DNA of 64,000 nt from Escherichia coli (GTDB lineage: Bacteria > Pseudomonadota > Gammaproteobacteria > Enterobacterales > Enterobacteriaceae): the NCBI RefSeq assembly GCF_003334385.1, contig NZ_QOWN01000015.1. One strand, given 5' to 3'. Positions 1 to 60,690 of the stretch are shown here, one piece after another. Positions within the stretch are counted from its first letter, which is position 1. Every line of letters starts with the position of its first letter. Made by a program: the position numbers and the translations under genes. The notes under the pieces are model-generated. The model saw only the letters and a list, made by a program, of their open reading frames with translations, made no database searches and was not told the DNA's origin.

Positions 1-96
1 TTATCGTGAGAGTAATTCATCGGCACGTTAAATCATATCAGGCGTAATACCACAACCCTTAAGTTAGCGCTTATGGGCCTGCGCCCCACATCTGAA

Positions 97-6328: not shown

Positions 6329-6477
6329 GACTCCTCCAGTGAGAAAATAGAGCAAAAGATAAGTATAGATGCTGGAGGAGGGGCGATTTTAAATGAGAGG
6401 AATCTGGTGTGCCTCCCTTTCGGGTGAAAGGGAGGAAGGGATATTAAGCAGGTTGCTGACAACGTGCGGGCTTTTTT

Positions 6478-6577
6478 GCCGGATGCGGCGTGAACGCCTT
6501 ATCCGTCCTACAAGTTCATGCAATTTTAATAAGTTGCCAGATATCCTGTAGGCCTGATAAGCGTAGCGCATCAGGCA
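6478..6577. repeat. REP/BIME cluster (two inverted REP units) between glnQ and ybiO
   Basis: GCCGGATGCGGCGTGAACGCCTTATCCGTCCTACA and TGTAGGCCTGATAAGCGTAGCGCATCAGGCA, canonical E. coli REP sequences in inverted orientation. Confidence 0.8.
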
Positions 6578-6587
6578 ATGTGTCTTA

Positions 6588-18438: not shown

Positions 18439-18462
18439 GCGGCTGATGACAAATGCAAAATA

Positions 18463-18560
18463 GCCTGATGCGCTACGCTTATCAGGCCTACGCAGTACCT
18501 GCAATATATTGAATCTGCAGGACTTTGTAGGCCGGATAAGGCGTTAACGCCGCATCAGGC
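18463..18560. repeat. REP/BIME cluster (two inverted REP units) downstream of ybiT
   Basis: GCCTGATGCGCTACGCTTATCAGGCCTAC and TGTAGGCCGGATAAGGCGTTAACGCCGCATCAGGC. Confidence 0.8.
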
Positions 18561-18642
18561 ATTAACAAAGCGCATTTGTCAGCAATCTGAGTAACGTCGA
18601 ATCGATTTTCTTAATCCCACATCAATTCACTTCCATTAATTC

Positions 18643-19908
18643 TCAAACATCCATGCCCAACGCTCGCTTACCGTGAATGTTGAGGTCGGCAAGCGTAAAG
18701 CGTCCTTCCCAGTTTGTTTCATAGTCCTCGCGCGGGAAGTCGCCCGGCGATGCGCCTTTTTCCAGTGCGGCCTTCACCTTGTGCGCGTAGGCAAGATTTT
18801 TCTCGCACATCGGTGCCGCAGGAATGTACATCACGTTGCCCCAACCTTGTTGATTTTCAACGGGGGCAACGGAATGGATGACGTCGCAGTGCCACCAGAC
18901 GGAGTCTCCGGCTTCGAGTTTTGGAATGCTGGTTAACGCCTCAATCAACAGTGGATGTCATTGCTCTGATACCGGCAATACTCTTCCGGGCGCTACGCCG
19001 CACAGTTCATCCTCCGGCACATCATCAAGCAGCGGACGTAACAGTACGTACGCCATAGCTTCAGGAATGGGCACGACGTGCAGCAGCCCCTGACCAGGCA
19101 GCATATCAGAGAGCGCTGTCCAGCCCTGGAATGTCCGAAACACGGAACATTTGGTGGTGTTGTCCACCGTGTACTCTTCAACTTCCGTACGATGTGCCGC
19201 ATGCCAGGGATCATATTGCGCCAGATTGCCATTAAAGACGTTGGCGAAAACGCGCTGATACGCTGGAAGCAGCCAGCGTTCCAGTGCCCCGGAGTCGGTA
19301 TGCGCTCCAAGACCTTTGGAGGTCGTTCCGGGCGGACGGCGGCGGATACGGTCAGGGTAGATGACGCTCACATCCGGGTTAAACCATTGCTTTCCATCAC
19401 TTTCAAATGTCCACAGACGATTGAGAAACGACTGCGCATTCGCCATTTCTTCACTCTGGCGGGCCTGCATTTGCGCCTGCGACCAGTAGATGGGGTAAAT
19501 CTCGGGACGTGAAGCGCTGAGCGTCCCGAAGAAATTATCGCCGGGGCCTTTGTAGACCTCGTCAAAGCGGTTGCGGTCCAGATAGTCCAGCATCGACTGA
19601 TCCCAGCCTAGCGCTTGTTCGCGGGGGAAATGGCCTTTTATCACCGCACAACCGCGACGTTTAATCTGTTCGCGCTGCTCTGCAGTAACATGACCTGCTT
19701 TGATATCGGCATAAGACAGCACCGGCCAGACGGCATCGCCCTGTGCTTTGAGTGCGTTGATTTCAGCCACTCGCGTGGCAATGTCATCGCTTAGCTGATT
19801 AAAGATCTGCTGGACGTCGCCAAGCTGCGCCCGCAGCGCGTGCTTCATCTGACGGATAGCTGCTTTGTGATCGGCAGGCAATGTGTCGCTGGTAAAAGTA
19901 GAAGCCAT
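18643..19908 (-). pseudogene. ybiU: ybiU (DUF1479 family protein) interrupted by an in-frame TGA at 18958..18960
   Basis: ORFs 18958..19914 (318 aa) and 18643..18948 (101 aa) are in the same frame; read-through gives ...PVSEQ*HPLLIEALTSIP... and a 421-codon ORF from MASTFTSD, the length I recall for intact YbiU. Confidence 0.7.
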
Positions 19909-19923
19909 AACCACCTCTCATTA

Positions 19924-19937
19924 ACTTTCATTCGAAA
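19924..19937 (-). promoter_or_regulatory. Copy A of exact 14-bp motif TTTCGAATGAAAGT (minus-strand reading), 15 nt upstream of ybiU ATG
   Basis: Plus strand reads ACTTTCATTCGAAA; identical 14-mer also at 20946..20959 and 24394..24407. Confidence 0.5.
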
Positions 19938-20014
19938 CCATTCTGATTTGCATGTGACAATATAAGTTATAAATAAGTTAATGCAAGTTTAATGATTTGA
20001 TGTGATGTACAGGA

Positions 20015-20050
20015 TGTAAAAAGAAGGGAAAACCGGAGCGCACGGCTCCG
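20015..20050 (-). terminator. Rho-independent terminator downstream of ybiV
   Basis: Hairpin CCGGAGC-GCACG-GCTCCGG just 3' of ybiV stop, followed on minus strand by UUUCCCUUCUUUUU. Confidence 0.6.
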
Positions 20051-20059
20051 GTAGAGAGG

Positions 20060-20875
20060 TCAGCTGTTAAAAGGGGATGTGTTATCCAGCACCGCCTGAA
20101 TCACATTCAGCGCGCCTTCATGATTATTATCATCGGTAGCGTAACGGGCGATTTGTTTAATGTTTTCCGCAGCATTGCCCATCGCAAAGGAATAACGCGC
20201 CATTTTCAGCATCTCCGCATCGTTACCGCTGTCGCCAATCGCTACCACATTTTGCGGTGACAGATCCCAGCGTTTCAGTAACCGCGAAATACCGTTTGCT
20301 TTATGTAGACCGGGAATAATCAGGTCGATAAAGCCAAAACCACTGGTAACGGGTTTCATAATGCCATCGAGCGCTACGTGCAGTTTGTCGATCACTAACG
20401 GGATTTGTTCATCCGGCAGGTTGAGCGAAAACTTGAACAGTACGTCGTCAATCTCCTGATAATCTTTTACAGGTTTCAGGCGATGGTAGTGTTTTGCCAT
20501 CAGTGCGACAAATGCTTCGGGGGCATTTTCGCTGACATATGCACTTTGCAGACCGCAGGCGACAAAATTGAGTTGCTTATCTTTTAGCAACTCGCCAATA
20601 ACAATCCGCGATTCATGTCGGGTCAGTTCGCCGTGGAACAACTGCTTGCCATGTTCGTAAACCAGTGCGCCGTTTTCCGCGACAAAAGAGATCTCATCCT
20701 TTAGCTCAGGAAAGAATGAAATAAGCTGGTAATACTGATTACCGCTGGCAACAACGAACTTAATGCCGCGCTTTTTCAGTTCCTGATATTGCGCCATAAA
20801 ACGTGGTTGGTTGTACGTTTTGGCGTCGTTAAGAAAAGTACCGTCCATGTCTGTGACGATAACTTTTACGCTCAT
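20060..20875 (-). CDS. ybiV: HAD-superfamily (Cof-type) sugar phosphatase YbiV
   Basis: 271-aa ORF with HAD motif I DMDGTF and C-terminal GDSGND. Confidence 0.9.
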
Positions 20876-20945
20876 AGGTGTGCTCCTGGCTCGAAAATGA
20901 AACCGTAACAGTGTAATAACAATGTGACGCAGAGCACAAATTATA

Positions 20946-20959
20946 TTTCGAATGAAAGT
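20946..20959 (+). promoter_or_regulatory. Copy B of exact 14-bp motif TTTCGAATGAAAGT, 70 nt upstream of ybiV ATG
   Basis: Exact match to copies A and C; lies between ybiW stop and ybiV start. Confidence 0.5.
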
Positions 20960-21020
20960 AAGGATGAAATTGATGATGTGAATGATTTAGCCCGGCGACG
21001 ACGCCGCCGGGCCGAGGAGA

Positions 21021-23453
21021 TTACAGCATATGTTCAGTACGGGCGATGATATCGTCCTGAGCGTCTGGAGAGAGCGCGGTGAAGAACGCGGAATAGCCCG
21101 CGACACGCACTACCAGATCGCGATACTGATCGGGATGTTTTTTCGCATCCAGCAGCGTTTCGCGGGAAACGATGTTGTACTGAATATGCCAGCCTTTATG
21201 CACTTCAAAGAAGGTACGCAGCAGGATCATCAGTTTCTGCTTGTCAGATTCGTTCTCCAGCGTTGCCGGATTCAGTTTCTGGTTGAGCAACACGCCGCCG
21301 AGAATCGCTGCCGTAGGCAGTTTACCCACTGAGCCAATGACCGCAGTAGGGCCAAGATGGTCAGTACCGGAGGCCGGGCTTGCGCCTTCTGCCAGCGGGG
21401 TGTGGGCTTTACGCCCGTCCGGTGTTGCCATAGTCTGCGCGCCAAACGGTACGTTAGCGGAGATTGATGACGTACCCGCGTAATAGTTGCCGCCAACCGG
21501 ACCACGACCGTAGCGCGGATTATGGTACTGTTTCAGTTCGTCGATATAGGTCTGATAAGCGCGAGCCAGCAGCGTATCGACAGTATCATCGTCGTTGCCG
21601 TACTTCGGCGCACCGTTAATCAGCCGCTGACGCAGCTGCTCGTGAGTCAGGCCGTCGAAGTCATCTGCCAGTGCGGCAGCAAGCTGTTGCTGACCAATCG
21701 CACCTTGTTCAAACACCAGTTTCTTCACTGCCGCCAGGCTGTTGCCGAGGTTGGCAATGCCGACCTGCAGGCCAGAAACCCAGTCATATTTCGCGCCGCC
21801 TTGCTTGATACTTTTCGCTCGCTCAATACAGTCATCCACCAGCGCCGAGCAGAGAATATCGTGCACGTTCTCTTCCAGCATGGTGTCGACGACATATTCG
21901 ATTTCGATTGATTTGCGGGTGTAGTAACGGATTTGCGTATCCCACGCGTCCATCACTTCATCGAAGTTGTTGAAGTTACCTGCCGACAACGCTTTTTCTT
22001 GTGGCAGGAACACTTTGCCGCTGGTGGCATCATGCCCGCCTTCCAGCGCCGCCAGCATCACGCGGGCGAAGTTGATAAAGCTCATGCCGGTACAGCGATA
22101 GCCCCATTTGCCACCGACGGCGGTTTCTATACAACCAATCGCTGCGTAGTCATAAGCGTCCTGCGGTTCAATACCGAGTTTAATAAATTCCGGGATCACG
22201 ATTTCGTCGTTGTTGAACGCCGGCATCCCGAAGCCGCAACGGATCACCTGTACGCAGGCGTCGAGGAAATCGTTGCTCATTCCTGCATGGTAACGCACGC
22301 TGAGGTTAGGCTGAGTGGAACGCAGGCGACCGCAGGATTCGAGGATCGCGTAAGAGAGTGGATTCACCGCGTCCATTGGTTGACCATCAACCAGATTTTG
22401 CCCGCCAATAGTGACGTTCTGATACAGCGGACTTCCCGCAGAGGCTTTTGAGTGTGAGCCGGAGCGGATCTTGTTCACTTCCAGCAGTTTCAGCCAGCAG
22501 CTATGCAGCATCTCGATGGCGTGTTCGCGATCCAGCGTCTGGTTGAGTTCAACGTCGCGGCGATAGTACGGGTAGAGATACTGGTCCATACGACCAAACG
22601 ATACTGAGTGACCGTTAGATTCGATCTGCAAAATCAACTGGATGAAGTAACACAGTTGCAGCGCCTGCCAGAAAGTCTGCGGCGGCTGGTGGGCGATAAG
22701 ATCGCAGTTTTCTGCCATCGCCAGCAGTTCATCGCGACGGCTTTCGCGGGTTTCGGTCGCGGCCATTTCACGCGCCAGGGCAGCGAAACGTTCAATGTGT
22801 TCACTGACTGCCACCAGCACGATATCAATCGCTTTCAGGAATTGCTCACCGTGTAAATCTTCCAGCACCGTCAGGTTGATGCGCGAGCGACGTTCCGCTA
22901 CTTTCTCGCGCAGACCATCAAGCCCTTTTTCCAGCAGCAGCGGGAAATTCACCGCCAGGTGCGCATCGCCGGAGGTCATATTGCCTTCCGCTTTAATGAT
23001 TCCGGTCGCCAGCAGACCTTTTTGCTCATCGGTAAACATGCCGTAGCAGCGATCCTGTACGGTCTGACCGCGCCACCACGGGCACACTTCATGCAGAACG
23101 CGTTTGTTCTCTTCGCTCACCGCAAAGCCAGCACCGGGACGATCTGCCAGATCATCAATCTCTTTTTCGATCCACGAGACAGTATATTCCGGGAAGATCG
23201 GCGCGGCGCGAACTTCGCTTGCCTGGTTGCCAATGATCAACTCATCGTGTTTGATCCAGATGGTGCGATTCGCCAGGTGATGCGCCAGTGCCAGCGCGCG
23301 ACGTACCGGGATCGGCTTATCGAGATGTTGTTGATACATCTCGGTATAGTGCTGCGCGCGCTCGGTACAGACTGGCGGTTTCACAATATGCACCAGCGCA
23401 TTTTTGTGCGCTTTAATGCGGTCGCTGAGCGTGTCCAGTTTCAGTGTGGTCAT
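21021..23453 (-). CDS. ybiW: Glycyl-radical enzyme YbiW (PFL-like fold; active-site loop GCIE of the eliminase type)
   Basis: 810-aa ORF; C-terminal glycyl radical motif RVAGYSA; single catalytic Cys followed by Glu (AAIGCIETAVGG) rather than adjacent Cys-Cys. Confidence 0.9.
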   Translation of the reverse strand: MTTLKLDTLSDRIKAHKNALVHIVKPPVCTERAQHYTEMYQQHLDKPIPVRRALALAHHLANRTIWIKHDELIIGNQASEVRAAPIFPEYTVSWIEKEIDDLADRPGAGFAVSEENKRVLHEVCPWWRGQTVQDRCYGMFTDEQKGLLATGIIKAEGNMTSGDAHLAVNFPLLLEKGLDGLREKVAERRSRINLTVLEDLHGEQFLKAIDIVLVAVSEHIERFAALAREMAATETRESRRDELLAMAENCDLIAHQPPQTFWQALQLCYFIQLILQIESNGHSVSFGRMDQYLYPYYRRDVELNQTLDREHAIEMLHSCWLKLLEVNKIRSGSHSKASAGSPLYQNVTIGGQNLVDGQPMDAVNPLSYAILESCGRLRSTQPNLSVRYHAGMSNDFLDACVQVIRCGFGMPAFNNDEIVIPEFIKLGIEPQDAYDYAAIGCIETAVGGKWGYRCTGMSFINFARVMLAALEGGHDATSGKVFLPQEKALSAGNFNNFDEVMDAWDTQIRYYTRKSIEIEYVVDTMLEENVHDILCSALVDDCIERAKSIKQGGAKYDWVSGLQVGIANLGNSLAAVKKLVFEQGAIGQQQLAAALADDFDGLTHEQLRQRLINGAPKYGNDDDTVDTLLARAYQTYIDELKQYHNPRYGRGPVGGNYYAGTSSISANVPFGAQTMATPDGRKAHTPLAEGASPASGTDHLGPTAVIGSVGKLPTAAILGGVLLNQKLNPATLENESDKQKLMILLRTFFEVHKGWHIQYNIVSRETLLDAKKHPDQYRDLVVRVAGYSAFFTALSPDAQDDIIARTEHML

Positions 23454-60494: not shown

Positions 60495-60512
60495 AAGCCG
60501 CATGTGCGGCTT
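60495..60512. terminator. Hairpin AAGCCGCATGTGCGGCTT at rlmC 3' end; A-run upstream gives a U-tail on the minus strand
   Basis: 7-bp stem with 4-nt loop immediately after rlmC stop; near-identical copy at 60665..60682 on the other side of the REP cluster. Confidence 0.5.
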
Positions 60513-60542
60513 CAGATTGCTGACAAAGTGCGCGTTGTTTAT

Positions 60543-60641
<99 letters not shown>

Positions 60642-60690
60642 ATTTTACCTTTGTCATCAGTCTCAAGCCGCGGTTGCGGCTTTCTGAATC

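Follow-up and report, generated by a model that had tools for sequence, protein, structure and literature searches.

The window analyzed in this study is a 64,000-nucleotide (nt) stretch of Escherichia coli DNA (contig NZ_QOWN01000015.1), in which ybiU lies on the minus strand (18643..19908), follows ybiY, ybiW, and ybiV in gene order, and is convergent with ybiT. The minus-strand frame from 19914 to 18643 was interrupted by a single internal stop, the TGA at 18958..18960, located in the read-through translation in the context ...PVSEQ*HPLLIEALTSIP..., and reading through this codon gave 421 codons from MASTFTSD. Mechanical detection of open reading frames (ORFs) returned two pieces of the gene in a common frame: 18958..19914, corresponding to 318 amino acids (aa) from an upstream GTG (19914) or 316 aa from the annotated ATG (19908), and 18643..18948, corresponding to 101 aa from a TTG; the gap between them consisted of the TGA and three sense codons (CAT CCA CTG). 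An earlier note on this DNA, made from the sequence alone, had described the two same-frame ORFs, the TGA with three sense codons, and the 421-codon read-through, all of which were seen here; its larger ORF was also correct, whereas the start of this ORF is the upstream GTG and that of the annotated ybiU is the ATG at 19908. The base after the premature TGA was C (CAA-UGA-C). The parts of the interrupted gene are as follows.

18958..19908, minus strand: 5' part of ybiU (ATG, codons 1-316, and the premature TGA), encoding a 316-aa truncated product that keeps H203-x-D205.
18958..18960, minus strand: premature opal stop at codon 317 (ancestral TGG, Trp), the sole mismatch to K-12 in 1361 nt.
18643..18957, minus strand: 3' remainder of ybiU, left untranslated: codons 318-421 together with the native stop (TGA, 18643..18645); identical to K-12.

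In a megablast search of window positions 18600-19960 against 5426 complete E. coli genomes, the best matches, including K-12 MG1655, were 99.9% identical, and none was 100% identical. The base-by-base comparison with K-12 MG1655 gave one difference in 1361 nt, at window 18958, and no insertion or deletion (indel): the plus strand has T vs. C in K-12 (A vs. G on the coding strand), which is a G:C to A:T transition from TGG (Trp317) to TGA. Codon 317 is therefore a sense codon in a relative that is one substitution away, with the frame otherwise intact, and the 105 codons after the stop were identical to those of K-12. The change from TGG (Trp) to TGA without an indel was exactly what the earlier note had proposed, and the length it gave for intact YbiU, 421 codons, agreed with the 421 aa encoded by K-12 MG1655 ybiU; the alignment to reference alleles that it suggested as a check identified TGG as the ancestral codon. 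An 81-mer centered on codon 317 matched 3955 complete genomes, with 80/81 positions in the best case, and the exact 81-mer with TGA at codon 317 was found in 0/3955 of these genomes. Since no complete genome matches the 81-mer exactly, the TGA317 allele is rare.

A one-base difference whose exact 81-mer is absent from all complete genomes, and which is known in the window from consensus sequence and not from its own reads, may be caused by a sequencing or assembly error, the strain truly having TGG and the coding-strand A being a consensus miscall. No chance statistic applies to a single-base event, and the relevant test is reproducibility. Public assemblies were searched for sequences identical to the 316-aa truncated product, which was on record there, and the codon was checked locus by locus. 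One contig assembled from the reads of a public sequencing run (Logan ERR1948963, on record for 5 samples; referred to as L006) was 100% identical to window 18527-22908 (4382 nt), and carries the TGA together with the non-K-12 base at 22904. With the allele recurring in sequencing data outside the window, there is very little likelihood of a random miscall. Furthermore, the site is neither a homopolymer nor a repeat, and no other gene in the window is broken by a frameshift or stop relative to K-12. A sequencing or assembly error is highly improbable as a whole, and TGA317 is a real mutation, specific to a lineage and not confined to one strain. Between the two options left by the earlier note, the pseudogene mutation was retained and the sequencing error was not, while "strain-specific" is to be replaced by lineage-specific. 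Five further sequences (L008, L009, and L011-L013; contigs ending 0-2 nt after codon 316), initially taken as graph bubbles at a single-nucleotide polymorphism, were set aside; the exact-length look-up selects such contig ends, so that they are no evidence.

The intact K-12 protein, which equals the window read-through with W317, matched PF07350 (Gig2-like, formerly DUF1479) with E = 2.4e-154 over residues 16-419 (model 5-408 of 408). PF07350 is the single domain in YbiU, and both fragments of the split allele were tagged with it. The full-length match to this family, near identity, and synteny between ybiT and ybiV identified the gene as an orthologue of ybiU. Crystal structures in PF07350 come from E. 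coli (2dbi and 2dbn), Salmonella (2csg), Yersinia (4rgk, 7twc, and 7twe), and Candida (GIG2; 6akz), and YbiU has the double-stranded β-helix fold of a PhyH-like Fe(II)/2-oxoglutarate dioxygenase. Conservation was assessed by an alignment of YbiU with 27 diverse full-length homologues (28-51% identity) from 1.84 billion representative proteins. Among these 28 sequences, 5 of the 14 invariant positions (G334, D335, W339, N371, and E397) and 9 of the 23 nearly invariant positions (P329, V337, H340, D342, H345, Y361, P366, P388, and L409) are located after residue 317. The lost segment is the C-terminal 105 residues, including a conserved GDxVWWHxDxxH motif (G334-D335-x-V-W-W339-H340-x-D342-x-x-H345). 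H203-x-D205 lies before the stop, with H203 conserved in 27/28 sequences and D205 in 26/28; H340 and H345, each conserved in 26/28, are the candidates for the distal metal-ligand His. Column 317 itself was variable and mostly aromatic or hydrophobic (W in 8/28, Y in 4, L in 3, C, F, and T in 2 each, and others in the rest). In the AlphaFold model, strands 336-340, 345-347, and 359-361 and helices 369-384 and 411-416 follow the stop, so the truncation removes three strands and two helices of the dioxygenase fold. Judging from conservation and the fold, the truncated product is almost certainly inactive; the roles assigned to individual residues are likewise predicted.

For ALTERNATIVES, three alternatives were weighed together: selenocysteine, a split functional gene, and a leaky stop. 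E. coli possesses the selenocysteine machinery, and the UGA may, in principle, be recoded; gene callers also place an ORF of 101 or 62 aa, matching PF07350, downstream of the stop, as would be the case for a functional split pair re-initiated at the TTG at 18948. A recoded UGA is expected to have a selenocysteine insertion sequence (SECIS) on its 3' side. A 69-nt segment that begins 3 nt ahead of the UGA (18963..18895) gave -11.7 kcal/mol (z = +0.66), and 145/200 shuffled sequences folded at least as well; no Rfam recoding element was detected in ybiU. The selenocysteine/SECIS reading was rejected on the basis of this fold, which was no better than that of the shuffles, and the absence of an Rfam match. 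In addition, column 317 was occupied by Trp, Tyr, Leu, and others, and not in the manner of a site with Cys or Sec in homologues, while the flanking and downstream sequences were unchanged from those of the TGG alleles. Regarding the split pair, the TTG has no Shine-Dalgarno-like sequence ahead of it, and the double-stranded β-helix would be cut between core strands, making reassembly unlikely according to the model. Recoding in either form has virtually no chance of being correct.

On the other hand, the stop may be leaky, such that Trp insertion at the UGA by near-cognate Trp-tRNA(Trp) in a small fraction of ribosomes converts a null allele into a strong knock-down that is physiologically relevant or selected. 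The context CAA-UGA-C makes leakiness possible, but not programmed: termination was shown to be inefficient with C after the stop, especially for UGA (PMC5289835), and readthrough of a UGA reporter in K-12 BW25113 was approximately 2% at 37°C and 4% at 25°C, which was ascribed to competition between Trp-tRNA(Trp) and release factor 2 (RF2) (PMC10570021). Because codon 317 originally specified Trp, readthrough with this residue would yield a 421-residue protein no different from wild-type YbiU. In spite of these points, the stop is not conserved, with 0/3955 complete genomes identical over the 81-mer, and a sister background has an amber TAG at codon 317, which is not rescued in this way by tRNA-Trp; a non-conserved stop together with TAG looks like random inactivation. 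K-12 carries a weakened RF2 variant, the readthrough figures above were obtained in K-12, and prfB of the window strain is outside the window. The residual few percent of a dispensable enzyme is no sign of selection. Low-level readthrough probably occurs at this UGA-C, nothing suggests selection for it, and a relevant or selected leaky stop is very unlikely. There is also a very slight chance that the opal allele is a tunable hypomorph kept by selection, supplying a few percent of wild-type YbiU that varies with the growth state (cyclic AMP and tRNA-Trp raise readthrough). If this is true, the allele represents a low-expression state of an oxygen-dependent enzyme next to the strictly anaerobic 1,5-anhydroglucitol-6-phosphate pathway of YbiW/YbiY.

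Nonsense alleles at codon 317 were also found in other lineages, none of them in complete genomes. TAG was detected in L004 (GCA_900094025.1; 3949-3951) and L007 (ERR1790175; 3949-3951), which have near-identical backgrounds, and TGA in L005 (ERR6411473; 3949-3951) and L010 (ERR1656437; 2399-2401), which share a divergent background that differs from the window at approximately 75 sites in roughly 4 kb. At least three independent nonsense events are on record at this codon. As a control, truncated products were counted at ten Trp codons of YbiU, including W317, and, with counts that mix real stops with contig-end partials, 99 contigs were found for W142, 33 for W166, 26 for W175, 58 for W212, 170 for W235, 71 for W263, 26 for W317, 56 for W338, 16 for W356, and 65 for W400. 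On inspection, at least three backgrounds had a stop at W263, with TGA and TAG both represented, and two backgrounds had TAG at W338. The six Trp codons of the neighboring ybiT gave 14-53 contigs each and the single Trp codon of ybiV gave 13, which were of the same order as ybiU. The plus-strand sequence around codon 317, 5'-ATGCCATTG, contains no Dcm site (CCWGG). A mutational hotspot or selection at Trp317 was rejected on these grounds: all ten tested codons were truncated (16-170 contigs), ybiT and ybiV behaved alike, and the Dcm site was absent. In so large a collection, every TGG codon of ybiU, ybiT, and ybiV has been hit, and recurrence reflects very deep sampling. By this crude truncation count, ybiU does not clearly stand out as a gene that is broken more often than usual.

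The following features surround the gene.

19914..19919, minus strand: Shine-Dalgarno-like site (GAGAGG) with a putative function, read from the sequence; 5 nt separate its end from the ybiU ATG.
19992..20020, minus strand: sigma-70 promoter-like site (TTTACA, 17 nt, AATCAT) upstream of ybiU; a consensus match only (9/12).
20032..20052, minus strand: terminator-like hairpin and T-run just after ybiV, with an 8-bp stem (6 GC pairs).

One sigma-70-like site was found upstream of ybiU vs. 1.3 expected in shuffled sequences, which is weak evidence for a promoter. The hairpin after ybiV suggests a boundary that sets ybiU apart as the final unit of the ybiY-W-V-U cluster. No gene is located downstream of ybiU on its strand, and polarity is therefore irrelevant. 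ybiU was found in 4309/5426 complete E. coli genomes and was at least 80% covered in 4259/5426; approximately 20% of complete genomes are without it, and it belongs to the variable rather than the core genes of the species. In a large group of genomes, ybiV is directly next to ybiT, the two being 199 nt apart in strain NGF1 (NZ_CP016007.1, 1241-1441). Loss of ybiU is common and tolerated because the gene is dispensable in E. coli.

Several other elements were observed in this region. Many complete genomes (e.g., NZ_CP115370.1 and NZ_CP019953.1) have an IS110-like IS621 transposase within ybiT-ybiU-ybiV (approximately 1.3 kb extra), and the window is without this insertion. The ybiT-ybiU intergenic region contains repeats of the repetitive extragenic palindromic type (18443-18590), with related copies at 6449-6579 and 60512-60660. 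Rfam matches in this region were ES036/CssrF at 18484-18526 (minus strand; 41.6 bits vs. a gathering threshold of 37.6) and, weakly, naRNA4 at 18530-18566 (plus strand).

The function of ybiU is uncharacterized, and EcoCyc recorded no information on it (PMC6412132). YciT binds upstream of the cluster, the genes of which were suggested to form an uncharacterized pathway (PMC8464067). YbiW was reported to cleave 1,5-anhydroglucitol-6-phosphate anaerobically, with no role given for YbiU (review PMC12441222, citing Ma et al.). A literature search by PDB code and accession returned nothing relevant on YbiU function, DUF1479 structures, or the sequencing runs. ybiU was listed among EF-P-dependent genes, with RNA and protein levels changed at least twofold in EF-P mutants (PMC5021804). 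A PPG motif (RRRPPG; window 19309-19317, the region of codons 198-200) is present in ybiU upstream of the premature stop. EF-P dependence represents an extra layer of translational control on the gene.

Window 75-64000 was collinear with K-12 from fiu to artQ. The 64-kb window differed from K-12 at 16 sites (15 substitutions and one 1-bp deletion), of which 5 were synonymous, 7 missense, 3 intergenic, and 1 the ybiU nonsense mutation. Natural isolates were closer than K-12, with NZ_CP144926.1 (raw milk) having only 4 differing sites in the first 24 kb. A laboratory K-12 derivative or a mutator background, which was suspected from 16 differences in 64 kb, was rejected because natural isolates match better (H56; 4 sites in 24 kb). 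The source is therefore a wild, K-12-like strain with normal polymorphism, and the assembly is not of low quality. Window 1-74 had no match to K-12 and is the end of an IS4-family element of the IS421/IS186 type, with its insertion point 22 nt past the fiu stop and approximately 20 nt before the K-12 ybiX start; it separates ybiX from fiu, and the same junction occurs in several natural isolates, including NZ_CP144926.1. At three more positions, the window departs from K-12 and also from the complete genome closest to it: 5259 (ybiO V357G), 6354 (loss of 1 bp from a T-run, 26 nt before the ybiO start), and 10564 (a synonymous rhtA change).

Collectively, these results very strongly favor ybiU in this lineage being a recent lineage-specific nonsense pseudogene, with the enzyme lost and nothing downstream affected. 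A spontaneous G:C to A:T transition converted Trp317 (TGG) to an opal TGA, at which ribosomes would release a 316-residue fragment in which the presumed metal site is reduced to its H203-x-D205 half. This fragment is without the C-terminal 105 residues, and with them the GDxVWWHxDxxH motif and three sheet strands of the PhyH-like Fe(II)/2-oxoglutarate dioxygenase fold. Since the motif and core strands are missing, the enzyme is predicted to be inactive and the fragment is probably unstable. With ybiU last in its cluster and converging on ybiT, no downstream effect is expected, and the loss is tolerated. Four points weigh against this interpretation. The loss of activity is derived from conservation and the fold. 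UGA-C is a weak terminator and, instead of being strictly null, the allele may be strongly hypomorphic. The T at 18958 rests on assembled contigs (the window and L006) and not on the window's own reads, and the source of the window may be among the 5 samples with the L006 contig, or these samples may be repeat sequencing of one clone.

As an event in a dispensable gene, a nonsense pseudogene of this type is ordinary, and this kind of feature is already known. The appropriate annotation of ybiU in this genome is one pseudogene interrupted by an internal stop, in place of two small genes. The lineage amounts to a naturally occurring knock-out, or strong knock-down, of ybiU, which is relevant to its use in studies on YbiU function or the ybiY-W-V-U/fsaA cluster. 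The absence of the gene from approximately one fifth of genomes and nonsense alleles at every tested Trp codon fit a dispensable gene under weak constraint, which may partly explain why ybiU stayed uncharacterized.

ybiU of K-12 MG1655 (WP_000168797.1) has 1360/1361 nt in common with the window, with the same start, the same native stop, and the same neighbors (ybiT, ybiV, ybiW, and ybiY); codon 317 is TGG in K-12, whereas it is TGA in the window, where the product ends after 316 of 421 residues. The PhyH-like dioxygenases TlxI (7vbq), AsqJ (6k0e), EctD (4nmi), and human PhyH (2a1x) shared just 7-16% sequence identity with YbiU, which differs from them by an extra N-terminal helical region. 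The other natural nonsense alleles of ybiU (W317 TAG/TGA, W263 TGA/TAG, and W338 TAG) likewise arise from a single G-to-A change in TGG and encode a truncated product; however, each arose independently, at another codon or in a different background, while the allele of the window is a TGA in a K-12-like (phylogroup A-like) background.
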